The notes beneath the pieces are model-generated. The model searched no databases. It saw nothing but the letters and a program-made list of their open reading frames with translations, and was not told the DNA's origin. From contig CAZUNW010000006.1 in assembly GCA_964621425.1 (NCBI GenBank), positions 1 to 28,031 of the forward strand: a stretch of 28,031 bases of DNA. The letters are read 5' to 3'. The stretch comes from an uncultured Chryseobacterium sp. (GTDB taxonomy: Bacteria; Bacteroidota; Bacteroidia; Flavobacteriales_F; PHOS-HE28). Position 1 is the first letter of the stretch, and every line of letters begins with the position of its first letter. Shown here one piece after another: positions 14,897 to 27,123 of the stretch. The position numbers and the translations under genes are program-made.

Positions 14897-17800
14897 GCCA
14901 CGGGTTCGAGGGTGCCGCTGGCCAGGTAGAGCAGGGCGCCCTGGACGGGAGCGCCGGTGACGTTACGCAGCAGTTCCATGTAGCCGCGCACCTGTTGTCC
15001 GTGAGCGTCATGCGGCGAGCCGGTCTTGATGTCGAGCACGCGCCATCCATTCGCATCCCGCACCACGCGGTCAGGTCGTGCGCTGCGGTCGCCTGGGTTG
15101 ATGATCGGGGTCTCCGTGATCACCTGCAGGCCCTCGCCATACCAGGGGCGCAGGTCCTCCCGGTTCAGCAGGGCTTCCAGTCGCGGGCGCCATGCAGCAT
15201 GCTCCGCGGGACCAAGCTCCCCTTTGGCCACGGCCGCTGTGAGTGCCATGTCGAGGTCATCCACGGTCTGCACGCGCGCGAGCAGGTCGTGCAGGGTGTC
15301 CCCCATGCGCCTGCGCTCATCGGGACCTACAGGGCCATTGTCCGGTGCGGTGGTCCGGACGAGGAGCTCCGCACCGCCCCCCGGTGCGATCGGGAGCAGG
15401 AAGGCATCCTTCGGGCTGGCCTCCTCCTTGCTGGACACCAACTGCCGTTCGCCGATCACCAGGCGATCCGATCCTCCCTTTTCATGCGCTTCGATGTAGG
15501 CCCTGATCCCGTCGGAGAGGGTGTCCGCGCGCGAGCTCGGGACCACTGCGTAAAGGCGTTGTTCCGGTCGGGTAAAGGCCACGTAGAGCAGGTCCAACCG
15601 GTCCAGGGCCTTCAGCTCGGTCTCCTCCCGCACTTCCGGTACATCGGGAGCCTTGTCGCCCTTGTAGGTGATCAGGGTGGCGCGCAGTTCAGGGTCGATG
15701 CTGCTGGGGTCGATCCACAGCCTTGTGACGGACTGTGCGTCCGAGCCCATGTTCGTGCTCGGGAGGATCACCACCGGGAACTGGAGCCCCTTGGCCTTGT
15801 GGATGGTCATGACCTTCACCGCGTCCTTTCCGGCGGGGATGGATACCGCACGATCGGCATAGGCGCGTTCCCAATGCTCGAGGAAGCCGGCCGGATCATG
15901 CCCGTGCTGTTGCTGGTGTTCGCGCACGGCGTCGAGCAGCACGTTGAGGAAGAGGTCCGTGGCTGGGTTGAGCCCGCAGCTGTGCACGTGGCCCAGCATG
16001 CGGTCCAGCAGGGTGGAGGATGCCCGCGGTCGCGCCGGGAAGCATTTGCGCACGCGCTCCATGGCGTTGCCGTGATGCGGGTCGGCCGGCGGATGCAGCA
16101 GTGCCTGGTCGATGAGCCCGGCATCCACCCCGGCCGCCAGCGCCTGCAGGGCGGTGGATCTTGACGGTGCCATGTCCAGCCGCAGCAGGGCGAGAACAAG
16201 GTCCACCGCCGCATCGCTGCTGAGCCGGAGGCCATCGGGGCTAACCACGTCAAAGCCGGCCGCGGTGATCGCCAGCGCCACCTGCTGCCCTTTGTCCCTG
16301 CTGCGCACAAGCACTGCGATGTCACCGGGTCGGTGACCGTCCGCGATGCACTCCTGGATGCGGTCCACGGTCCATGCGATCGACCAGGTTTCCGTTGCAC
16401 CTGCCGGGTCCAGCTTGGGCGCGACCTCGAGGTGGACCAGCCCACCGTGTGGTTTCCGGGCCTCCTGGGCCTGGTCGTCATAGACGGGCTGATAGCGCAC
16501 CGGCAGCAGTTGCCGCAATTGGTCGAACAGGCGGTTGTTGAGCTCCACGATGGTCGCGGACGAGCGGTGGTTGTCCCGCAGGGGGGCGAGCGGGGACCAG
16601 GAGGACCGCAGGAACTGTTCACGACGCTGGCCATCGGCCAGCAGCTCGCGTCCGTGGATGGCGGGCAGCTCCTTGAACTGGCGCACCTCGCCGTTGCGCC
16701 AGCGGTAGATGGCCTGCTTGGCATCGCCCACCAGGAAAACCGAACCGCCGTTGGACAGGGCGTTCTCCGCGAGCGGCAGCAGGGCATGCCACTGCATCAC
16801 CGAGGTATCCTGGAACTCGTCGATGAGGAAATGGCGGTACCGCTGGCCGAGCCGTTCGTAGAGGAAGGGAACAGGTTCATCGCGCACCACGCGTTCCACG
16901 GCACGCGTGAGGTCCTGGAAGAAGGTCACCCCGTCCTCCCGCTTGGCGACCTCCAGTTCGTCGGAAAGGGTGCACAGGGCTCCTGTGGCCATCAGTTCCT
17001 TGCGAAACATGATCCGCAGCTGGTGGTCACGGAAGCTGCCGTCATCGGTCCACCGCCTCACGGCCTCCACCGCGCCCCGCTGCATGTCGGCCAGTCCGTC
17101 AAGCGCGACCCGCGCGGACCGGGAGGCCTTGGTGCTCGCCCAGCGGCCTTCCCTGGCGACATCCTCCGTAGTGGGTGTCAGCTTTATGTCCTCGGCTGGG
17201 AAGGCGGCCATCCGCTTCAGCAGGGTGAAGATGGCACCCTTCCTGGCCAGATCCCCCTCTTCGAGCCCTGCGTTCCTCAGGGCCAGCAGGCCATGTTGCC
17301 CCATGTCGTTCACCTCCTTGCGGAAGGCGCGGATGGCCTTGTTCAGTCGGTCCTCCGCGCGCAGCATGGCGGCGGCGTCCATTTGCTTGAGGGTGGCCAG
17401 GTGCCGGATGGCCTGTTCCTGGTCGAGCTCACCCACCAGTTGTTCGAAGGGGGCTGTGGGCTGCCAGCGCGCCTCATCCTCAACCAGGCGTTCGCACGCC
17501 TTCACCAGTACATCGGTGAGCGCATGATCTCGTCCGGCGGCGTCCAGCACGAGCTCGATGGCGCGCTGGCGGTACCATTTCTGGTCGGTGGACATGCGGA
17601 GGTCCTGGTCCAGCTTCAGGTCGCGGGTAAAGGGTTTCACCAGACGGCGGACGAAGGCGTCGATGGTGGTAATGGACAGATCGGACCAATGGTGCAGCAT
17701 ATCCCGAAGCACCGCTTGTGCCCTGGCCGTGGCCTCTTCCGGGCCGATACCGTTCGCATCCTTCAATGCAGCCAGCAGGTCAGCGATGCGCTGGTCGGTG

Positions 17801-17994
17801 AACTCCTGGTCTGCCAGCTGGCGCAGGTAGAGCAGCACACGGTCCTTCATCTCGGCCGCGGCCTTGTTGGTGAAGGTGAGCGCCAGGATGTTGCGGTAGG
17901 CCCGGTGATCCTGTTGCAGGGCGAGGAGCACGTACCGCTTGACCAGGGCATGGGTCTTGCCCGATCCTGCGGAGCTATGGAGCACCTGGAGCAT
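14893..17994 (-). CDS. addA: UvrD-like helicase with a C-terminal RecB-type nuclease, AddA/RexA-like subunit
   Basis: SAGSGKT, TFTNKAAAEMKDR, TTIDAF, LIDEFQDTS, VGDAKQAIYRWR, NHRS, MTIHKAKGLQF and LYVAFTR, with nuclease motifs RPDRV...LDIKTG...QQVRGY. Start set at ATG 17994, 1033 aa. Confidence 0.85.
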   Translation of the reverse strand: MLQVLHSSAGSGKTHALVKRYVLLALQQDHRAYRNILALTFTNKAAAEMKDRVLLYLRQLADQEFTDQRIADLLAALKDANGIGPEEATARAQAVLRDMLHHWSDLSITTIDAFVRRLVKPFTRDLKLDQDLRMSTDQKWYRQRAIELVLDAAGRDHALTDVLVKACERLVEDEARWQPTAPFEQLVGELDQEQAIRHLATLKQMDAAAMLRAEDRLNKAIRAFRKEVNDMGQHGLLALRNAGLEEGDLARKGAIFTLLKRMAAFPAEDIKLTPTTEDVAREGRWASTKASRSARVALDGLADMQRGAVEAVRRWTDDGSFRDHQLRIMFRKELMATGALCTLSDELEVAKREDGVTFFQDLTRAVERVVRDEPVPFLYERLGQRYRHFLIDEFQDTSVMQWHALLPLAENALSNGGSVFLVGDAKQAIYRWRNGEVRQFKELPAIHGRELLADGQRREQFLRSSWSPLAPLRDNHRSSATIVELNNRLFDQLRQLLPVRYQPVYDDQAQEARKPHGGLVHLEVAPKLDPAGATETWSIAWTVDRIQECIADGHRPGDIAVLVRSRDKGQQVALAITAAGFDVVSPDGLRLSSDAAVDLVLALLRLDMAPSRSTALQALAAGVDAGLIDQALLHPPADPHHGNAMERVRKCFPARPRASSTLLDRMLGHVHSCGLNPATDLFLNVLLDAVREHQQQHGHDPAGFLEHWERAYADRAVSIPAGKDAVKVMTIHKAKGLQFPVVILPSTNMGSDAQSVTRLWIDPSSIDPELRATLITYKGDKAPDVPEVREETELKALDRLDLLYVAFTRPEQRLYAVVPSSRADTLSDGIRAYIEAHEKGGSDRLVIGERQLVSSKEEASPKDAFLLPIAPGGGAELLVRTTAPDNGPVGPDERRRMGDTLHDLLARVQTVDDLDMALTAAVAKGELGPAEHAAWRPRLEALLNREDLRPWYGEGLQVITETPIINPGDRSARPDRVVRDANGWRVLDIKTGSPHDAHGQQVRGYMELLRNVTGAPVQGALLYLASGTLEPVA

Positions 17995-17999
17995 GGTGT

Positions 18000-18008
18000 C
18001 GAAAGGTA
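18000..18008 (-). promoter_or_regulatory. Putative -7 element of addA-elaA
   Basis: The minus strand reads TACCTTTCG, 5 nt before ATG 17994. Confidence 0.55.
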
Positions 18009-18069
18009 AGATCCCCCCACGGCTCGCCCGGACCCGCTCCAGCCGCGGCGGGAGGGGCGCGCACGGCAG

Positions 18070-18077
18070 TACCTTTG
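18070..18077 (+). promoter_or_regulatory. -7 element of the mbnP-peroxidase operon
   Basis: Perfect TAnnTTTG (TACCTTTG), 50 nt upstream of ATG 18128. Confidence 0.55.
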
Positions 18078-18127
18078 GATGAGAGGCAACGAACAACGCC
18101 CACGCGTCGGTCATTACCCTGCAACAC

Positions 18128-18883
18128 ATGCGCATGCGCCGGTCGATCCCCCTGATGCTCGTCATCCTTGTCGCACCGCTGTTCTCCGGCTGCCAGAAGC
18201 CCCCGGCAGGTGGCGGTCCGGAAGGTTTTGTCCGGTTGAAGGTCCAGGCCACATGGGAGGGGCAGCCCTTGCAGGCCGGCCAGGTGCACGTGAACGCGAG
18301 CGGCTATCGTGTGCAGGTGGAGCTACTGAAGCTGTACCTGGCTGAGGTGCGGTTGACCGGTCCGTCCGGTGCTGCCCCGCTTATGGACATCACGTTGCTG
18401 AACGCTTTCGGCACAGGTGGTGCCCCGGTCCTCCCGGTCGCTTCGGGCAGCTACATTGGCCTTCATTTCGGGCTCGGGGTCCCGCCTGAGCTCAACGCCT
18501 CGGATCCGGTGCTCTATCCGGTCGGTCATCCGCTCAGCGTAAGCAACGGTACCTACTGGACCTGGGCCACGGGCTACCGCTTCGTGATGTTCGATGGCCG
18601 GTATGACACGGATCCGGATGGAACGGGTGCTCCCCTGAGCCTGTTCTCCATCCACACCGGAATGGCCCCCTGTTACCAAGTGCGGGACATGGACCTGGCG
18701 ACCCCCTTTGTCGTGGAGCCCGGGGATACCACCGACCTGGTGCTGCAACTGGCCGTGGAGCGGTTCTTCACCAGTGCCACGGACACCATCGACCTGGCGG
18801 TGGACAACCAGTCACATGGGGAGAACATGCCGCTTGCCCTGAGGTTCACGGAGAACGTCCTCAACAGCATCACGTTGGAGTGA
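18128..18883 (+). CDS. MbnP-family lipoprotein (WxW motif, putative copper-binding)
   Basis: Lipobox LFSG|C, LKLYLAEVRL, GLHFGLGVPPELNASDP, YWTWATGYRF (WxW at 18557-18565), IHTG and SHG. Directly upstream of di-heme peroxidase-like genes, as in mbnP-mbnH pairs. Confidence 0.78.
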   Translation: MRMRRSIPLMLVILVAPLFSGCQKPPAGGGPEGFVRLKVQATWEGQPLQAGQVHVNASGYRVQVELLKLYLAEVRLTGPSGAAPLMDITLLNAFGTGGAPVLPVASGSYIGLHFGLGVPPELNASDPVLYPVGHPLSVSNGTYWTWATGYRFVMFDGRYDTDPDGTGAPLSLFSIHTGMAPCYQVRDMDLATPFVVEPGDTTDLVLQLAVERFFTSATDTIDLAVDNQSHGENMPLALRFTENVLNSITLE

Positions 18884-19890
18884 GGGGGACGGCGGTCATC
18901 GGTCTCCTTGTCTTCCTTGCCGCCTGCCGCAAGGATGCACCGCTGCGTTCGGAGGGTCCTGCCGAGCCCCTTGTGCTTGATCTTCCCGCGTGGGTGCCGA
19001 ACCCTCCGGTCCCGGAGGATAATCCGCTCACACGGCAGGGCGTAGAGCTCGGCCGGCGGCTCTTCTTTGAGCCCCGTCTCTCGCGCACCGGTGCGCTCAA
19101 TTGTGCCGGGTGCCATTTCGTGGACCGTGCGTTCAGCGACACGGTGTCATTGAGCCTGGGGGTGGACCAGCAGCCCGGGCTGCGCAATGCGCCGACCCTG
19201 GCCAATCTGGCCTATCACCCGTCCTTTTTTCGCGATGGTGGGGTTCCCTCCCTCGAACTGCAGGTGCTGGCGCCGATCCACGACGCGCTTGAAATGGACC
19301 ACAGCATCCTTGAGGCCGCCGACGCAATCGGGGAGGAGGAGCCCTATCGCAGCCTGAGCATGCAGGCCTACGGTCGCCCGCTTGACGCGTACGTGATCAC
19401 CCGGGCCATTGCCAGCTATGAGCGCACGCTGATCAGCGCCTGGTCGCGCTTCGACCGGTTCCTGTACCAAGGCGATACGGAGGCCCTCACTGCCAGTGAA
19501 CGTCGCGGGTGGGAGGTGTTCTCCGGTCCGGCGGCCCGCTGCAGCAGCTGCCATTCCGGCTTTGACCTGAGCGACCACAGTTTCCGGAACGTCGGCCAGT
19601 ACATGACCTATGCCGATGCCGGACGCGCGCGCATCACCCTGGACCCGGCCGATGAGGGGCGCTTCAAGGTGCCCACGTTGCGCAACATCGCGCTCACCGC
19701 CCCGTACATGCATGACGGTGCGCTGGCCACGCTGGATGAGGTGGTGGACCACTTCGCCTCCGGCGGGTACCCGCACCCCAACAAGGATCCCCTGATGACA
19801 CCGTTCACGCTTACCTTGGAGGAGCGCGCAGACCTGCTGGCCTTCCTGCGGGCGTTGACGGACGAGCAGGGACTTGAGCAAGCACCATGA
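18880..19890 (+). CDS. Di-heme cytochrome c peroxidase/MauG-family lipoprotein, atypical paralog
   Basis: Lipobox LAA|C. DNPLT..GVELGR.LFF..RLS, CAGCH (19102-19116), CSSCH (19540-19554) and FKVPTLRN...PYMHDG. The GTG overlaps the mbnP stop. Confidence 0.9.
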   Translation: MRGTAVIGLLVFLAACRKDAPLRSEGPAEPLVLDLPAWVPNPPVPEDNPLTRQGVELGRRLFFEPRLSRTGALNCAGCHFVDRAFSDTVSLSLGVDQQPGLRNAPTLANLAYHPSFFRDGGVPSLELQVLAPIHDALEMDHSILEAADAIGEEEPYRSLSMQAYGRPLDAYVITRAIASYERTLISAWSRFDRFLYQGDTEALTASERRGWEVFSGPAARCSSCHSGFDLSDHSFRNVGQYMTYADAGRARITLDPADEGRFKVPTLRNIALTAPYMHDGALATLDEVVDHFASGGYPHPNKDPLMTPFTLTLEERADLLAFLRALTDEQGLEQAP

Positions 19891-21014
19891 GCCCGCTCCA
19901 ACGCCGCACCATGCTCGTTTGCGCCGTGCTTGCCACGGCCATCGCTAGCTGCCGCAAGCCACGGCCCGATCCCCCGACCGGCGGAGGGCCGGCGGTGCCC
20001 GTTTATGACCCCACGCCCTATGACCTGCAGACACCGGCCAACTTCCCGCCGATGGTGATCCCGCAGGACAACCCCCTCACCGTGAAAGGGGTGGAACTGG
20101 GCCGATACCTCTTTTACGAGGAGCGCCTCAGCGGAGACAACACGCAAAGCTGCGCGGGATGCCACTCCCCCCAGGCCGCATTCAGCGATGCCCCGAACGT
20201 GTACAGTGTGGGGATCGACGGGCTGGAGGGTACGCGCAACGCCATGGCCCTGATGAACCTGGGCTGGGAGACGAGCTTCTTCTGGGATGGTCGTGCCGCC
20301 ACCCTGGAGGAGCAGATCCTCTTCCCGGTGGCGGACCCGGTGGAGATGCACGACTCCTGGCCGAACGCCGTGGCCGAGTTGCAGTCGGACGAAGCCTACC
20401 GGTCCCTGTTCATCGAGGCCTTTGATGCGGATCAGATCGACAGCACGCTGGTGGCGAAGGCCATCGCGCAGTTCCTGCGCACGATGATCAGTGCAAATGC
20501 GAAGGTGGACAAGGTGGCCCGGGGCGAGGCGGTCTTCACCTCGCAGGAACAGCGCGGGTTCATCCTCACCCAGCTGGAGGGCGGTGACCCTGCCGCCGGT
20601 CAGGGTGGCCAGTGGGGGGCGGACTGCTTCCACTGCCACACACAGGTGGGTGGCCTGTTCACCAATGGCCAGTTCGAGAACAACGGGCTGGATTCGGTCT
20701 TCACGGACCTGGGCCGTTTCAGTGTCACGGGCGACCCGCTGGACCGTGCCCGGTTCAAGGTGCCCACCTTGCGGAACGTGGCCCTCACCGGTCCATACAT
20801 GCACGATGGCCGCTTCCAGACGCTGGATCAGGTCATCGAGCACTACAACTCGGGTGGCGTCCCTTCGCCGACCATAAGCCCCTTCATGAAGTTCACCCAG
20901 GGAGGGTTGCAGCTGCCTGCCTCGGACAAGGCGGCCTTGATCGCGTTCCTGAACACCCTGACGGACCTCGATTTCATCAATGACCCGCGGTTCCAGGACC
21001 CGGGTGCGCCCTGA
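19887..21014 (+). CDS. Di-heme MauG/MbnH-like lipoprotein (His/Tyr-type)
   Basis: Lipobox IAS|C. CAGCH (20151-20165), FWDGRA.TLEEQ, CFHCH (20625-20639) and FKVPTLRN...PYMHDG...EHY. The ATG overlaps the preceding stop. Confidence 0.9.
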   Translation: MSPLQRRTMLVCAVLATAIASCRKPRPDPPTGGGPAVPVYDPTPYDLQTPANFPPMVIPQDNPLTVKGVELGRYLFYEERLSGDNTQSCAGCHSPQAAFSDAPNVYSVGIDGLEGTRNAMALMNLGWETSFFWDGRAATLEEQILFPVADPVEMHDSWPNAVAELQSDEAYRSLFIEAFDADQIDSTLVAKAIAQFLRTMISANAKVDKVARGEAVFTSQEQRGFILTQLEGGDPAAGQGGQWGADCFHCHTQVGGLFTNGQFENNGLDSVFTDLGRFSVTGDPLDRARFKVPTLRNVALTGPYMHDGRFQTLDQVIEHYNSGGVPSPTISPFMKFTQGGLQLPASDKAALIAFLNTLTDLDFINDPRFQDPGAP

Positions 21015-22496
21015 TCAGGCGGCTTGCTCCACGGCTGCTTCCGGCCTCCAGATGCGGCTGATCATGCGGTCGCCGAACACCTCGGGCTTGAACATGCTGG
21101 TACCCATGAGCATGCGGGCGCACTCCTGCACGCCCTCGGTGATGCTCGGGTGGGGGTGGACCAGCTCGGCCAGGTGCCGGATGCCCTGTCCCATGTGCAT
21201 GAGCAGTGCGACCGCCTGGATGGCGCTGGAGGCATGCTCGCCCACGGCACGCATGCCCAGGACCCGCATCTCCGCGTCATCCGTAACGATGAGCTTGAAG
21301 AAGCCCTCCGTGCGGCGCATGGCGATGGCCCGGGCCAGGCAGCTGTAATCGATGCGTGCCGTGCGGTGCGCGATGCCCCTGCGCCGGCATTCCTGCTCGT
21401 TCAGGCCCACACCGGCCACCTCCGGGTCGAGGAACATGATGGTGCTCACCTGTCCGTAGCTGATGGGCTCGGGATCCCGTCCCGCGATGAGCTCGGCGGC
21501 ATGCCGTCCCTCCAGTTCACCGAGGTTCACGAGCATGTTGCTTCCCGTGGCATCGCCCACGACCAGAATGTGCTCCTGCGCGGTGCGGATGCCGTCCACG
21601 GCGAGCGTGCCGAGGCGTGCGTCCAGTGCCAGTCCGGCCCTCTCAAGGCCCAGTCCCTGCAGGCTGGGCGTGCGTCCCACGGAAAGGAGGGCTTTTTCCA
21701 CGGTGACGCTCTCGGTGGAGCCGTCCGCGTAGCTCAACACGTAGTCCACCCCGGTGGCCGTGGCCTCCATCCGCTCCAGCTTGGCGGACCTGTGGATGAT
21801 GACGCCATTGCGTTCAAGGTTCCCGGCCACCAGTTCGCTCACGTCGGGGTCCTCGAAGGGCAGGATGCGTTCGGCCCGGTCGATGAGGTGCACGCGGGTG
21901 CGGCCAAGGTGGCTGAGGATCGTAGCGAACTCGCAACCGATGACCCCTGCACCGACGATGACGATGCTGTCAGGGAGCTCCTGTAGCTGGAAGATGCCGT
22001 CGCTGGTGAGGATCCGCTGTTCATCGGGCACCAGTCCGGGCAGCGAACGGGGTTTTGAGCCGGTGGCCACGATCACGTGGCCTGCACGTACCTCCCTGCG
22101 CTGGCCCTCAAATTCGATGGATATGGTATGTGGGTCCAGGAAGGATGCGTTGCCCCGTGCGTGCTGGAAGAGGCCTCCCTGGCCCTCCAGCAGGTGCATG
22201 TGGCATGCGTAGAGGTATTTGCGCTCGAAGACGGCCTCGTTCACCGTGCGCATGATGCCGGACCACGCGGGCTGGTAGGGGGGGATGCCGCGGGTGCGAA
22301 CCATGGCATTGGTGCCGGCCACACGCTGTGCGATCTCCCACAACGTCTTGGACATGAGCGCGCCGTTGTAAATGCCCGTGCCCCCGATGCGGTCGCGCTC
22401 CACAAGAAGGGTGCGCAGGCCCAGGTCGATGGCGCGCATGGCGGCCGCATAGCCCGCCGGTCCACCACCGATCACGCACAGGTCGACATGTTCCAT
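21015..22496 (-). CDS. Class I pyridine nucleotide-disulfide oxidoreductase-family flavoprotein without the redox disulfide (SthA/Lpd-like)
   Basis: FAD motif VIGGGPAG, ATGS.P, NAD motif GAGVIGCEFA, VGD and C-terminal HPSITE. The position of the CxxxxC motif reads GGTGIYNGALMSK. Start set at ATG 22496, 493 aa. Confidence 0.8.
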   Translation of the reverse strand: MEHVDLCVIGGGPAGYAAAMRAIDLGLRTLLVERDRIGGTGIYNGALMSKTLWEIAQRVAGTNAMVRTRGIPPYQPAWSGIMRTVNEAVFERKYLYACHMHLLEGQGGLFQHARGNASFLDPHTISIEFEGQRREVRAGHVIVATGSKPRSLPGLVPDEQRILTSDGIFQLQELPDSIVIVGAGVIGCEFATILSHLGRTRVHLIDRAERILPFEDPDVSELVAGNLERNGVIIHRSAKLERMEATATGVDYVLSYADGSTESVTVEKALLSVGRTPSLQGLGLERAGLALDARLGTLAVDGIRTAQEHILVVGDATGSNMLVNLGELEGRHAAELIAGRDPEPISYGQVSTIMFLDPEVAGVGLNEQECRRRGIAHRTARIDYSCLARAIAMRRTEGFFKLIVTDDAEMRVLGMRAVGEHASSAIQAVALLMHMGQGIRHLAELVHPHPSITEGVQECARMLMGTSMFKPEVFGDRMISRIWRPEAAVEQAA

Positions 22497-22556
22497 GGGG
22501 TTGTGGCCGGGATCGCTGGCGGTGTATACGGGGAACGTGCCCCGGGGGTTGCGTAT

Positions 22557-22589
22557 CCTTTTCCTGCGGCACCCCGTAGGAAGGGGCGC
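22557..22589 (+). other. Leader hairpin containing CCGTAGGAAGGGGCGC immediately before the PKD giant gene
   Basis: CCTTTTCCTGCGG (22557-22569)-CACC-CCGTAGGAAGGGG (22574-22586) forms a 13-bp stem with 3 G.U pairs and ends 4 nt before ATG 22591. Confidence 0.55.
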
Positions 22590-22590
22590 A

Positions 22591-25500
22591 ATGAACAGGA
22601 CCTTGTTGAACGTGGCCCGCACCGGCGGCCTGCTCGTGGTCCTATCCATGGCCGCCCAGGCGTCGGCGCAGTGCCCGATGCTCTACGACCACAACGGGGT
22701 GCCCAGTGCGGCCCCGGAGTGGATCAGCTGTTCTGGCCTGCCGCACACGCTGGTGATCGCCTCACCGCAGCCGGTGGCCGGTGGTTACACCATTGATTGG
22801 GGGGACGGTTCGCCCCAGTTCGTAGGTGCGGGGCTGGTCCCGCCCGCCACGGTGACCCACGTTTACGCTCCCGCAGTGGCCGAGCGCACGATCATATTCA
22901 CCCACCTGATGACCGGCTGCGTCGTGACCGGCAAACTGATCATGGAGCAGAGCACCAGCGCCTCGATCCAGATCCCGGTGGGCGGCCTCACCCAGGTGTG
23001 CGCGCCGCAGGCCATCGATTTCATCAACTCCAGCACAAACGTCTCCCCGAACACGGTTTTCACCTGGGCCTTCGGCGATGGCACGCCCCAATCGCTCTTC
23101 GATCATACCAACCTGGGCCAGGTGACCTCTCACCTGTACCTGCCTGGCACGGTGAGCTGCGAGACCACCGTGAGGCTCTTCGCCCAGAACCGTTGCAACG
23201 AGCTGCAGGGCGGTCCGAGCGTGGCCACCTTCAACCCCATCCGGGTGTGGGACATCGACAGTGCCCGCATCGCCCCGAGCGCCACGCTGCTGTGCTGGCC
23301 GGACCGCACGGTGACCTTCCAGAACATCACGGAGCGCAATTGCCTGCAGCAGGGCAACATCAACCAGCGCTTCGAGCTGTGGAACTTCGGCGATCATTGG
23401 GGCCTGGGGCACGACTCCATCATTGGATGGACGCCATGGCCACCCTCGTTCCCCCGCGTCATCGAATACCCGGGCATCGGCATCTATGACGTGATGCTGC
23501 TGGACAGCAGCTATTGTGGCGTGGACACGGCGCACGTGCAGATCAAGATCGTTCCCCCGCCCAGCGTGACCCTCACGGGCGGCCCCTTGACGGTGTGTGC
23601 CGGCGGCACGGTATCCTTCGATGAGAACACGGGCGGTGGGGCGAACTACTTCGAGTGGGACTTCGGCACGGGCGGAGGCTTCCATTGGACCGCTGCCGGG
23701 GATCAGTCGCACATGTTCGCCACGCCGGGCACCTATACCGTTTCCTATGCCGCCAGCATCCAGGGCGCCACGGCCGGCTGCGCGGACACCGCCTCGGTCA
23801 CCGTGGAGGTGCTTCCCAGTCCCACCGCCGGCTTCTCGGTCGACCGGTCCGCCGCCTGCGATTCGCTCACCGTCACCTTCACCAACACCTCGGTCAACGC
23901 GGTTGCCCAGCTCTGGGACCTGGGCGATGGCACGACGTCCACGGCGTTCGAACCGCCGCCTCACTTTTATGCCGGACCGGGCAGCTACATGGTGACACTG
24001 ACCGTGGCCAACGGCGATGGCTGCGAGGATGTCCATACGCAGCAGATCGATGTCTATGCACCGCCCGTGGTGCTGATCGGTGCCCAGAACGTGTGCGAGG
24101 GGGTGCTCGCGCAGTTCGCGGACCTGACGGTGACCGCGCCCGGCAATGAGGTGGTGCAGTGGGCGTGGGAACTGGGAGATGGCACCACGTCGGCGGATGC
24201 CGCGCCCGCGCACCTGTACGCGGCGAATGGTGGCTACACCGTGACGCTCACCGTCACCACGCCCTACTGTTCCGGCAACGGTTCGCAGAACGTTCTCGTG
24301 GAACCGGTCCCCACGGCATCCTTCCTGCCGGTGCCCACCATCGGCTGTTCCCCGCTTGGTGTGCAGTTCACCAGTACGAGCATCGGCGCTGTGGACCATG
24401 CCTGGTCCTTCGGCGATGGGGCTTCGGGCACGGGCACCACGCCGTTCCACACGTATGTGAACCACGGTGCGGTCGATGCCGTTCATACGGCCACCCTGGT
24501 GGTGAGCACCCTTTTCGGCTGCACCGATACCGCCACGGCCTCGATCACCGTGGCCCCCCCCGTGGTGGCCTCATTCGTGCATGATGGCCAGCCGGCCTGT
24601 GCGCCACTGGCGGTGCAATTCGCGAACACCAGCACCGGGGCGGGTTCCTATTCCTGGTCCTTCGGTGATGGGGGCTCCAGCAGCGCGGCCTCACCCGCGC
24701 ATCAGTACGCGAACAACGGGCTCTTCCTCCAGACCAATACGGTGCAGCTCGTTGCCACATCTTCCGCCGGCTGCGCGGATACGGCCACTGCCACCATCTC
24801 CGTGTATCCCACCCCGCAGTTCGCTTTCAGCCCACAACCCGCTGCCGGTTGCTCACCCCTGTCGGTGGCCTTCCCGGCCATCATGGGGGCGGTGAGCCTG
24901 GCGTGGGACTTCGGTGACGGGTCCACCTCCAACAGCCCCGCCCCCGCTCACACCTACGTGAACACCGGCATCGCCCCCGTCACCCACCCGGTGACCCTGG
25001 TGGGCATGAACGCCTTTGGCTGCGTGGATACGACCTACGGCGCCGTGACGGTCAACCCCACCCCCGAGGCCTCCTTCAGCCTGGCAGCGGGGTCGGGCTG
25101 CCATCCCTTCACCACGAGCCTGACGAACTCCAGCACGGGTGCAACCACCCACGCATGGATCTATGGCGATGGCGCGGCCTCCAACACGAACGCCCCGGTG
25201 CACGCGCACACTTGGATGAACCCCTTCGCTGTTCCGCAGACCTACGATGTGGGACTTGTGGCCAGCAATGCATACGGTTGCAGCTCCACCGCCAGTGCCG
25301 AGGTGGAGGTTTTCCCCGCCGTGATCGCCCAGTTCCTTGCCGATACGGTCGGTTGTTCCCCGTTCGATGCACAGTTGACCGACATCTCCACCGGCGCGTC
25401 CAACCACCTGTGGCTTTTCGGCGATGGAGGTGCCAGTGCGCTGGCGAGTCCTGCACACACTTACGTGAACCAGGGGGTCGATGACGTCGTCTTCAACCCC

Positions 25501-27123
25501 GTGCTGGTGGCCACCTCGAACCATGGGTGCAGCGATACGGCCACCGCGGCGATCCTTGTTCATCCCGCGCCCCTCATGCAGTTCATGCCGGCTGTACTCT
25601 CCGGTTGCCAGCCGCTACCGCTGGGCCTGCAGGACCTTTCGATCGGTGCCGCTTCGATCACCTGGAACTGGGGTGATGGCGACCAGCAGGCCGGGGTGCC
25701 CGGCAATGCCCAGCACACGTTCATGCATGGTGACAGCGTGCCCGTGGACTTCACCATCCAGCAGATCGGTGCCTCGGTGCACGGCTGCACCGATACCGCA
25801 CAGGCCGTGGTCCAGGTGTACCCGGCCATTACGGCCTCGTTCAACGCTTCCTCCGATGGATGTTCGCCCATGGCCTACGCCCCGGTGAATACGAGCATCG
25901 GCGCTTCCAGCTACCTGTGGACCATGGGTGACGGGGTCACGCTGGTCGGTCCTGCCCCTGTGCATACCTACATGAACGGCACGCTGGCAAACCAGACCTG
26001 GATGGTGACGCTGACCGCGACCTCGCCCTGGGGATGCTCCGCCAGCGCCCAGCAGCCAGTGGTGATCCATCCCACGCCGAACGCACAGTTCCAGGGAACA
26101 CCATTCGTGCAGCAGTTCCCGGCTTCCACCGTTGCGCTTACGAATACGAGCTCAACCGGGCCGTGGACGCACACCTGGGACATGGGCGATGGGACCATCC
26201 TCAATGGTGCGCAGCCGGGCGGACATTCCTATGCGGGTTGGGGCCAGTTCACGATCACCCTGGTGGTCACGGATAATGTGTGCGGCGATACCGCTACCCA
26301 GGTCGTTACCATTGAGCCGCCTTATCCCACTGCCTCCTTCACCGGGTCGGCGGATGGTTGCGCCCCCCTCACGGTGCAGTTCACCAACACGTCGCTGCTG
26401 GGCCAGTCGTACCTCTGGAACTTCGGTGATGGTGGCTCGAGCACAGCGGACAATCCGGTGTACACCTTCACCGTGCCGGGCACCTACACGGTGACCCTCA
26501 CGGCTCATGGTCCCGGCGGTACGGTGAACACGGCCGTCCATGTGGACAGCATCGTGGTGCGTCCGCGGGCAACAGCCTTCTTCATCGCGCAGCCTGAGCA
26601 GGTGGTGGTGCCTGGTGAGCCGGTGGACTTCCACAACCTGAGCGGCAATGCGGATAGTTTCTGGTGGGACCTGGGTGACGGAACGACCACGACCGAAATG
26701 AACCCGGAGCACACCTATCAGCAGGCGGGGGGCTACACGGTCACTCTGGTGGCCAACAACATGTGGAACTGCCCGGACACCTTCACCGTGGTGGATGCTG
26801 TGATGGGCATCGCCACAGGGTCCATCGCTTTTCCCAACGCCTTCACGCCGAACGGCGACGGGCCAACCGACGGCATCTACGACCCGAGCTCGTTGAGCAA
26901 TGACTTCTTCTTCCCCGTCCAGGAGGGTGTCCAGGATTACCGCCTGCAGGTGTTCAACCGCTGGGGGGAGCTGGTCTTCGAGTCCACGGATGTCCGCAGG
27001 GGCTGGGATGGCTATTACCGCGGCGAGCAGGCGAAACAGGACGTCTACGCCTGGAAGGCCTGGGCGAGGTTCAGCGATGGGAGGGAGCAGAAACTGGCGG
27101 GTGATGTAACCCTGTTGCGTTAA
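22591..27123 (+). CDS. Large PKD-repeat surface protein with a T9SS type-B (gliding motility-associated) CTD
   Basis: Signal peptide ...AQASA|Q and 16 W-x-(F/L/M/W/Y)-G-(D/T) PKD core motifs. CTD is FPNAFTPNGDG...VFNRWGELVFES...GWDG...GDVTLLR. Start set at ATG 22591, 1510 aa. Confidence 0.9.
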   Translation: MNRTLLNVARTGGLLVVLSMAAQASAQCPMLYDHNGVPSAAPEWISCSGLPHTLVIASPQPVAGGYTIDWGDGSPQFVGAGLVPPATVTHVYAPAVAERTIIFTHLMTGCVVTGKLIMEQSTSASIQIPVGGLTQVCAPQAIDFINSSTNVSPNTVFTWAFGDGTPQSLFDHTNLGQVTSHLYLPGTVSCETTVRLFAQNRCNELQGGPSVATFNPIRVWDIDSARIAPSATLLCWPDRTVTFQNITERNCLQQGNINQRFELWNFGDHWGLGHDSIIGWTPWPPSFPRVIEYPGIGIYDVMLLDSSYCGVDTAHVQIKIVPPPSVTLTGGPLTVCAGGTVSFDENTGGGANYFEWDFGTGGGFHWTAAGDQSHMFATPGTYTVSYAASIQGATAGCADTASVTVEVLPSPTAGFSVDRSAACDSLTVTFTNTSVNAVAQLWDLGDGTTSTAFEPPPHFYAGPGSYMVTLTVANGDGCEDVHTQQIDVYAPPVVLIGAQNVCEGVLAQFADLTVTAPGNEVVQWAWELGDGTTSADAAPAHLYAANGGYTVTLTVTTPYCSGNGSQNVLVEPVPTASFLPVPTIGCSPLGVQFTSTSIGAVDHAWSFGDGASGTGTTPFHTYVNHGAVDAVHTATLVVSTLFGCTDTATASITVAPPVVASFVHDGQPACAPLAVQFANTSTGAGSYSWSFGDGGSSSAASPAHQYANNGLFLQTNTVQLVATSSAGCADTATATISVYPTPQFAFSPQPAAGCSPLSVAFPAIMGAVSLAWDFGDGSTSNSPAPAHTYVNTGIAPVTHPVTLVGMNAFGCVDTTYGAVTVNPTPEASFSLAAGSGCHPFTTSLTNSSTGATTHAWIYGDGAASNTNAPVHAHTWMNPFAVPQTYDVGLVASNAYGCSSTASAEVEVFPAVIAQFLADTVGCSPFDAQLTDISTGASNHLWLFGDGGASALASPAHTYVNQGVDDVVFNPVLVATSNHGCSDTATAAILVHPAPLMQFMPAVLSGCQPLPLGLQDLSIGAASITWNWGDGDQQAGVPGNAQHTFMHGDSVPVDFTIQQIGASVHGCTDTAQAVVQVYPAITASFNASSDGCSPMAYAPVNTSIGASSYLWTMGDGVTLVGPAPVHTYMNGTLANQTWMVTLTATSPWGCSASAQQPVVIHPTPNAQFQGTPFVQQFPASTVALTNTSSTGPWTHTWDMGDGTILNGAQPGGHSYAGWGQFTITLVVTDNVCGDTATQVVTIEPPYPTASFTGSADGCAPLTVQFTNTSLLGQSYLWNFGDGGSSTADNPVYTFTVPGTYTVTLTAHGPGGTVNTAVHVDSIVVRPRATAFFIAQPEQVVVPGEPVDFHNLSGNADSFWWDLGDGTTTTEMNPEHTYQQAGGYTVTLVANNMWNCPDTFTVVDAVMGIATGSIAFPNAFTPNGDGPTDGIYDPSSLSNDFFFPVQEGVQDYRLQVFNRWGELVFESTDVRRGWDGYYRGEQAKQDVYAWKAWARFSDGREQKLAGDVTLLR
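22780..26800 (+). repeat. Tandem array of about 16 PKD (Ig-like) coding repeats, about 84 codons each (boundaries approximate)
   Basis: Recurrent GC.PL.V.F.N.S...W.FGDG...H.Y...Y.VTL......GC.DT units. CCTGGTCCTTCGG(C/T)GATGGGG recurs at 24401 and 24653, 252 nt apart. Confidence 0.8.

Follow-up and report, generated by a model that had tools for sequence, protein, structure and literature searches.

A variant MbnH-type di-heme protein with Phe and Arg in place of the heme-2 axial Tyr and the inter-heme Trp, encoded in a Bacteroidota MbnP operon

What can a MauG-type di-heme enzyme do after losing both the Tyr that ligates its second heme and the Trp that lies between its hemes? This question is raised by a 28,031-nucleotide stretch of DNA from an uncultured Chryseobacterium sp. 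(GenBank assembly GCA_964621425.1, contig CAZUNW010000006.1, positions 1 to 28,031), hereafter the window, in which two paralogous di-heme enzymes, designated H1 and H2, are encoded side by side. For bis-Fe(IV) chemistry and long-range protein oxidation, the reference enzymes are MauG, MbnH, and BthA, whose Tyr ligand is regarded as the mark that sets them apart from ordinary peroxidases. In MauG-type enzymes, one heme is ligated by His and Tyr, and the bis-Fe(IV) state, Fe(IV)=O/Fe(IV), is formed (PMC11892367). Exchange of this Tyr for His removes the near-infrared signature of bis-Fe(IV) in MauG and BthA, and the BthA Y463H variant keeps its peroxidase activity (PMC6405878). MbnH turns the Trp of a WxW motif in MbnP into kynurenine, thereby building a copper site (PMC11951088), and MbnP/MbnH pairs are widespread outside methanobactin operons (PMC3621798). 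H1 is a close relative of MbnH in which a non-coordinating Phe replaces the Tyr and Arg replaces the Trp, and this form is kept under strong selection in more than 100 species.

H1 (positions 18880-19890, plus strand) is a protein of 336 residues with a GTG start and a lipobox Cys at position 16. It scored 155.4 bits against the Pfam family CCP_MauG (PF03150), well above the cut-off of 25.6. Its best NCBIfam model was TIGR04039 (MbnH), but neither H1 (252.5 bits) nor H2 (245.9 bits) reaches the cut-off of this model, 362.85. An AlphaFold2 model of H1 had a pLDDT (predicted local distance difference test) of 96.4, and its best Protein Data Bank match in Foldseek searches was MbnH (6E1C; template modeling (TM) score 0.85), with bacterial cytochrome c peroxidases (bCCPs) and MauG at TM scores of 0.74-0.79. 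The bCCP/MauG superfamily is recognized by the di-heme peroxidase fold and by two CxxCH motifs placed in two domains. Both are present in H1, which is a member of this superfamily and has every superfamily feature tested. The heme-1 attachment motif CAGCH (Cys75, Cys78, and His79; 19102-19116) is invariant in 146 aligned homologs, and the heme-2 attachment motif CSSCH (Cys221, Cys224, and His225; 19540-19554) is likewise invariant in homologs.

The distal axial ligand of heme 2 is Tyr in MauG, MbnH, and BthA, and Met in canonical bCCPs. H1 has Phe292 (TTC, 19753-19755) at this position, within the sequence DHFAS (residues 290-294) and a model helix spanning residues 285-294, and HMMER placed it under the Tyr of MbnH 6E1C (DIY). 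Alignment with MauG paired H1 residue 79 with His35 and residues 254-287 with 256-289; with this offset of +2, Phe292 corresponds to MauG Tyr294. Phe292 is also 14 residues past the His of PY(F/M)HDG, which we take to be the place of Met275 in the Pseudomonas aeruginosa enzyme. No conserved Met was found near Phe292 among the homologs, so the His-Met arrangement of canonical bCCPs is not present either. Arg118 (CGC, 19231-19233; FFRDGG, residues 116-121) was aligned with the Trp of FWDGR in four peroxidase structures, 1IQC (Nitrosomonas), 3O5C (Shewanella), 9QDT (Escherichia coli YhjA), and 2C1U (Paracoccus). H2, which is 42% identical to H1, has Trp133 of FFWDGR (20283-20285) in the column of Arg118 and Tyr320 of EHY (20844-20846) in the column of Phe292. 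A third position, that of MauG Trp199, is occupied in H1 by Ala219, two residues before the first Cys of CSSCH. Thus, the three MauG positions used for hole hopping and charge storage, Trp93, Tyr294, and Trp199, are Arg118, Phe292, and Ala219 in H1. H1 therefore has neither the axial Tyr nor the inter-heme Trp of the MauG type, the latter not being strictly defining because BthA also lacks it. An earlier interpretation of this locus made from the DNA letters, referred to here as the sequence-only reading, had placed Phe and Arg at these positions of H1 and Tyr at the axial position of H2, and the alignments agree with it at all three.

In contrast to heme 2, the distal pocket of heme 1 is retained. 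It is formed by QVLAPIHDALE (Gln128, Pro132, and Glu138; 19261-19293), the spacing of which presumably equals that of MauG Gln103, Pro107, and Glu113. An alignment of Phe-type sequences shows these three residues, Pro275, and the two CxxCH motifs to be invariant, and among homologs in general they are invariant or nearly so, as expected from the earlier observation that the heme-attachment motifs and the Gln/Pro/Glu set remain. The sequence-only reading had further assigned a Ca site to FKVPTLRN. This motif is indeed conserved, but it is not itself the ligand set: by homology, the ligands are Asn103 (19186-19188) and, through their backbones, Thr273 and Pro275 of TAPYMHDG (19696-19719). All three are conserved, Pro275 being invariant, Thr273 and Asn103 present in at least 90% of sequences, and Asn103 invariant among the Phe-type ones. 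By the same +2 offset, we take Thr273 and Pro275 to be MauG Thr275 and Pro277.

The Phe and Arg residues are strongly conserved. In the 120 closest homologs of H1, which are 58-100% identical to it and come from many independent samples and assemblies, position 292 is Phe in 118 and Leu in 2, and position 118 is Arg in 115 and Lys in 5. Essentially all of 101 sampled genomes of the same genus or family have an ortholog of H1. Pairwise ratios of nonsynonymous to synonymous substitution rates (dN/dS), calculated against four relatives, were 0.15-0.21 for H1, 0.13-0.16 for H2, and 0.22-0.41 for the MbnP-like gene that precedes them. H1 and H2 are under equally strong purifying selection, and H1 is best explained as a genuine and functional member of the MbnH/MauG branch, a c-type di-heme lipoprotein.

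What, then, occupies the distal side of heme 2? A column-wise comparison of Phe-type and Tyr-type sequences revealed no His, Met, Lys, Cys, or Tyr that had been gained consistently across separate Phe lineages. Several residues of the core Phe clade (Trp188, Asp229, Ser160, Tyr180, and Tyr241) were considered as compensating ligands and rejected, as none of them tracks Phe292 across the Phe lineages (loci L030, L081, L043/L045/L050/L060, and L011). The Tyr of GGYPHP (Tyr297), which the sequence-only reading had named as a possible substitute, is not conserved (Leu in 66 and Gln in 24 of the 120 closest homologs, with other residues in the rest) and so cannot serve the family as a whole. Residue 293, which follows Phe292, is mostly Ala, and the pair Phe292-Ala293 most likely forms a hydrophobic cap over heme 2, as judged from these sequences. 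Because no ligand co-varies with Phe292, the most economical inference is that heme 2 is five-coordinate or water-bound. A comparable arrangement occurs in cytochrome c', in which the c-type heme has His on its proximal side and, on the distal side, a vacant site under a hydrophobic Phe or Leu cap. This is a functional analogy for heme 2 only, cytochrome c' being a non-homologous protein with an unrelated four-helix-bundle fold.

The genomic context provides further information regarding H1. Three plus-strand genes overlap in the window: an MbnP-like lipoprotein gene (18128-18883), H1, and H2 (19887-21014). The GTG start of H1 shares 4 nucleotides with the stop of the MbnP-like gene (GTGA), and the ATG of H2 shares 4 nucleotides with the stop of H1 (ATGA). 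The genes for the MbnP-like WxW protein, H1, and H2 form a translationally coupled three-gene operon, in which H1 is the first of two paralogous enzymes. The MbnP-like protein (251 residues, lipobox Cys22) scored 93.3 bits against Pfam PF20243, above the cut-off of 27, and 49.8 against the NCBIfam equivalog TIGR04052, below the cut-off of 140. Its WxW motif, W144-T-W146 (18557-18565), aligns with the WxW motif of MbnP (7L6G). Among 42 neighboring MbnP-like proteins, W144 and W146 were found in all, His176 in 41, and His230 in 38.

We surveyed such loci using one genome per species and HMMER annotation with the three window proteins, which yielded 80 loci. The commonest gene order was one or more MbnP-like genes, followed by a Trp-less enzyme and then a Trp/Tyr enzyme; this order held for most of the loci and was seen in Flavobacteriales, Saprospiraceae, Chitinophagales, Kapaibacteria, and other Bacteroidota. 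Variants included P-P-H-H loci with two MbnP genes (e.g., L005, from a relative at 74% identity) and P-H-P-H loci (L056 and L067). Four genomes had no adjacent second enzyme, but all four carry Trp/Tyr paralogs elsewhere and are uninformative as to whether Trp-less enzymes work alone. The context that best explains H1 is the upstream MbnP-like gene together with the MbnP/Trp-less/canonical operon conserved across Bacteroidota, a context that the sequence-only reading did not include. MbnP/MbnH-type copper-site maturation systems in Bacteroidota are therefore usually two-enzyme systems.

To place the two substitutions in time, we refer to a maximum-likelihood tree of 139 enzymes. In this tree, the canonical second enzymes, including H2, formed one clade (53 sequences, support 100), all Trp-less enzymes formed another (74 sequences; Shimodaira-Hasegawa-like approximate likelihood ratio test (SH-aLRT) 91), and single enzymes with Trp, Tyr, and His299 branched between the two. 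Trp-less enzymes have Arg or Lys at position 118 and rarely Met, Val, Ser, or Ala; the Trp/Tyr enzymes adjoining them have Ser at 299. The presence of Trp changed once, by a loss at the base of the Trp-less clade, mostly to Arg. Most members of this clade retained Tyr292. Phe292 was found in 22 of the 74 Trp-less sequences versus none of the 53 canonical ones, namely in a core clade of 15 that includes H1 (SH-aLRT 98) and in a few other lineages, which suggests that Tyr became dispensable only after Trp had been lost. The change from Tyr to Phe marks the Flavobacteriales lineage of H1 and a few others. The proposals that H1 represents a distinct subfamily and that it arose by two separate losses are both upheld, the losses lying at different depths of the tree, with that of Trp at the clade base and that of Tyr later and in part of the clade. 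The best tree requires four changes for the latter, but a single Phe clade is not rejected (approximately unbiased test, p = 0.44), so that recurrent loss is not established. In the wider family, represented at 50% identity, approximately 40% of domains have no Trp and approximately 7% have Phe instead of Tyr. Trp loss is common and by itself is no sign of uncoupled hemes. The phylogeny also offers a graded series, Trp/Tyr, Arg/Tyr, and Arg/Phe, for biochemical comparison.

An additional observation concerns residue 160 (19357-19359). In the 139 enzymes, Trp118 is accompanied by Phe160, and Trp-less enzymes have Ser, Ala, or Cys at 160. The pairing is weaker among the wider representatives (82 with Trp and Phe, 13 with Trp and another residue, 31 with Phe and no Trp, and 34 with neither). 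This pattern suggests that positions 118 and 160 touch between the hemes and that the inter-heme region was remodeled along with the loss of Trp118.

These data lead us to favor, with a confidence only slightly above even, the interpretation that H1 is a functional MbnH-type variant with a catalytic heme 1 and a repurposed heme 2 that lacks a Tyr-stabilized bis-Fe(IV) state, acting with H2 on MbnP-type proteins. Heme 1 of H1 would still activate H2O2. With neither Tyr nor Met supplied by the canonical helix, and without a Trp relay, heme 2 would not support the Tyr-stabilized, charge-resonance bis-Fe(IV) species of MauG, MbnH, and BthA. It would most likely be five-coordinate or water-bound behind the Phe/Ala cap, as in cytochrome c', and its role may be structural, one of electron entry, or that of a second ligand-binding site. 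H1 could then serve as a ferryl or compound I-type oxidant, or as an auxiliary redox partner beside H2, and the two enzymes together may mature MbnP-type proteins by converting the Trp of WxW to kynurenine and building the copper site. The confinement of Phe292 to the Trp-less clade, and its absence from the canonical one, is consistent with Tyr having become dispensable when this paralog gave up bis-Fe(IV) chemistry. A three-chain complex prediction of H1, H2, and MbnP, with MbnP as the scored partner, reached 0.59, compared with 0.29 for the best control; at least 93% of contacts were the same between runs, and the pLDDT of the partner was at least 84. Of 78 solved complexes, 51 attained the mark used for such scores, as did 2 of 108 mismatched pairs; scores of 0.60 or less accounted for just 5 of the 78 solved complexes and for all 4 passing mismatches. 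The prediction is thus a weak hint of an association of H1, H2, and MbnP.

Several points weigh against this interpretation. The fall of the complex score from 0.59 to 0.29 occurred when H2 was replaced, which indicates that the predicted placement of MbnP leans on H2 rather than on H1 and gives no support to a direct contact between H1 and MbnP. A second, unlinked MbnP-like gene in the same genome would be compatible with a scheme of one enzyme for one substrate. The five-coordinate state proposed for heme 2 derives from the missing co-varying ligand and not from geometry, and nearby conserved His residues (His291, His299, and His233) could move in to give bis-His ligation. Finally, by analogy with BthA, which has Ser at the position of the inter-heme Trp and still makes bis-Fe(IV), loss of Trp alone would not uncouple the hemes (PMC6405878); the uncoupling proposed in the sequence-only reading does not follow from the Trp loss alone.

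The His residues are the basis of the alternative that survives best, although we regard it as unlikely. It holds that heme 2 is re-ligated by His299, His291, or His233 and so becomes low-spin with bis-His ligation, and that H1 is a conventional di-heme peroxidase with one electron-transfer and one peroxidatic heme, similar to the MauG Y294H and BthA Y463H mutants, which scavenges H2O2 or feeds electrons and carries out no long-range protein oxidation. In agreement with this model, the heme-1 pocket is intact, His299 (in GGxPHPN, 19774-19776) is invariant in the 120 closest homologs, and His291 and His233 are present in 108 and 112 of them, respectively. A precedent is BthA Y463H, which showed peroxidase kinetics similar to the wild type and no bis-Fe(IV) signature (PMC6405878). 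However, Tyr-type relatives have all three residues just as often, so that none of them distinguishes the Phe lineages, and both His299 and His233 align with His in MbnH 6E1C. In addition, His291 is Phe in 10 of the 120 homologs, some Phe-type sequences (L018, L020, L028, and L060) have Asp, Ala, Asn, or Gln in place of His299, and the cap contributed by Ala293 is hydrophobic.

In a rather improbable alternative, heme 2 is a second open active site or a site for a small ligand (O2, NO, or H2O2), and H1 is a sensor or an O2-dependent oxygenase. The hydrophobic Phe292-Ala293 cap with no co-varying ligand is compatible with this possibility, as is a weak Pfam match of H1 to RoxA-like_Cyt-c (E value 6.5e-4, below the cut-off). 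Cytochrome c' binds gases at a five-coordinate, His-ligated c-heme with a Phe or Leu cap, and RoxA, a member of the same superfamily as H1, is a dioxygenase. However, no signaling domain or regulator gene was found adjacent to H1, and the O2 site of RoxA is its N-terminal heme rather than heme 2. A related scheme, which we consider quite speculative, is that Phe292 turned heme 2 into an open, five-coordinate O2/H2O2 site and H1 into a c-heme oxygenase with two active sites. H1 would then catalyze dioxygen-dependent ring opening of the MbnP Trp in the manner of tryptophan 2,3-dioxygenase or RoxA, with H2 supplying radical long-range oxidation. To our knowledge, no such division of labor is known in the MauG/MbnH family.

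We give little credence to the idea, already raised in the sequence-only reading, that H1 is a non-catalytic pseudo-enzyme. In that case, its hemes would be kept only for folding, and it might dock MbnP or H2 as a scaffold or chaperone or form a heterodimer with H2. H1 lacks the equivalents of MauG Trp93, Tyr294, and Trp199 and is always accompanied by a canonical Trp/Tyr paralog, whether next to it or at another place in the genome; both observations would suit such a role. A scaffold, however, has no need of Gln128, Pro132, Glu138, and the Ca-site residues, which are invariant or nearly so. The dN/dS values of H1 are as low as those of H2, and in the P-H-P-H loci (L056 and L067) the Trp-less enzyme has an MbnP gene of its own. 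An assembly or sequencing error at the Phe and Arg codons, or decay of H1, can be rejected: the source is a fragmented metagenome-assembled genome (386 contigs, 70% complete) and TTC is one base from TAC, the error considered in the sequence-only reading, but the same residues recur in 118 and 115 of 120 independent homologs and in approximately 100 related genomes, and the H1 frame is open and free of stops, with dN/dS in the range given above.

H1 can be compared with the known di-heme enzymes. Its best match in both sequence (E value 2.9e-54) and structure (TM score 0.85, 37% identity) is MbnH of Methylosinus trichosporium OB3b, with which it shares the CCP_MauG fold, the Ca site, the Gln/Pro/Glu pocket, and a gene position directly 3' of an MbnP-family WxW gene. 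MbnH has a His-Tyr heme, the inter-heme Trp, and bis-Fe(IV) (PMC11892367, PMC11951088), whereas H1 has Phe292 and Arg118; H1 also differs in scoring below the TIGR04039 cut-off, in being a Bacteroidota lipoprotein, in having a second, canonical paralog beside it, and in having no methanobactin genes nearby. MauG of Paracoccus denitrificans (3L4M) resembles H1 in fold (Foldseek E value approximately 1e-19), heme-1 pocket spacing, and the Thr and Pro of the Ca site, and its Y294H mutant (3ORV) is a laboratory analog of the loss of the Tyr ligand in H1. Unlike MauG, H1 has Arg118, Phe292, and Ala219 for Trp93, Tyr294, and Trp199, is not part of a mau operon, and gives a weaker sequence match (E value 9e-18). 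BthA of Burkholderia thailandensis (6NX0) naturally lacks the inter-heme Trp, having Ser257 instead (PMC6405878), but this distant homolog (E value 1.1e-11) keeps Tyr463 and a stable bis-Fe(IV) and has no Ca site. Canonical bCCPs (1IQC from Nitrosomonas europaea, 3O5C from Shewanella, and 9QDT, E. coli YhjA) resemble H1 in their fold, their two CxxCH motifs, their Ca site, and the catalytic Glu of heme 1 (E values 5e-44 to 5e-40); they differ in their His-Met electron-transfer heme and FWDGR Trp, at which H1 has Phe and Arg. With neither the MauG-type Tyr nor the bCCP Met, and with a TIGR04039 score below the cut-off, H1 is most aptly classed as an MbnH-type variant.

A literature search found no description of the Arg/Phe variant, the primary MbnH papers being beyond the reach of that search, and nothing relevant was found on Bacteroidota MbnP/MbnH systems or a 'metallo-mystery pair'. 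With its canonical sister enzyme and presumed substrate gene beside it, H1 is part of a natural 'mutant' pair in which the need for Tyr and Trp can be tested.

H2 itself (375 residues, plus strand, lipobox Cys22) scored 181.1 bits against PF03150 and matched 6E1C with an E value of 4.9e-55; its CxxCH motifs are at residues 89 and 247. It has a Gly-rich insert (20571-20639) with Trp243 (20613-20615) four residues before the heme-2 CxxCH. This residue was considered as an analog of MauG Trp199, but it occurs in 8 of 54 members of the canonical clade and is a feature of the lineage rather than of the clade. Upstream of the operon, the sequence TACCTTTG (18070-18077, plus strand) is a candidate promoter, approximately 50 nucleotides 5' of the MbnP-like start. 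It may be recognized by its fit to the Bacteroidota -7 promoter consensus, which is TAnnTTTG, and is located in a 133-nucleotide divergent intergenic region shared with a UvrD-like helicase gene. A scan of positions 17800-21300 for sigma-70 promoters and intrinsic terminators found none, as expected for Bacteroidota.

Some further genes of these families were also noted. Among the family representatives are polypeptides of approximately 1080-1390 residues with two MbnH-like di-heme domains, each preceded by approximately 250-300 residues and each containing both Trp and Tyr; these look like fused (MbnP-MbnH)x2 proteins. The source genome has two MbnP-like and two MbnH-like genes in total, and just one MbnP is linked to the enzymes. 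The second MbnP-like lipoprotein (254 residues, 104.6 bits against PF20243, motif HWGWN) is encoded on contig C88 (locus L092, 1396-2160, plus strand) and has no di-heme enzyme gene adjoining it, its neighbors being ketoacyl-synthase-like and secreted esterase-like genes. A third CCP_MauG protein of this genome (contig C5, 27006-27752, minus strand; L003/L004) lies in a 646-residue open frame with two CCP_MauG matches and is unrelated to the MbnP operon.

Downstream of the operon, the window contains a pyridine-nucleotide disulfide oxidoreductase-like gene (21015-22649, minus strand) and a gene for a PKD-repeat protein of approximately 1500 residues with a CHU_C C-terminal domain of the type IX secretion system (22495-27123, plus strand). 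In relatives at 58-74% identity, both genes likewise accompany the operon, which probably reflects synteny within the lineage rather than a functional link.

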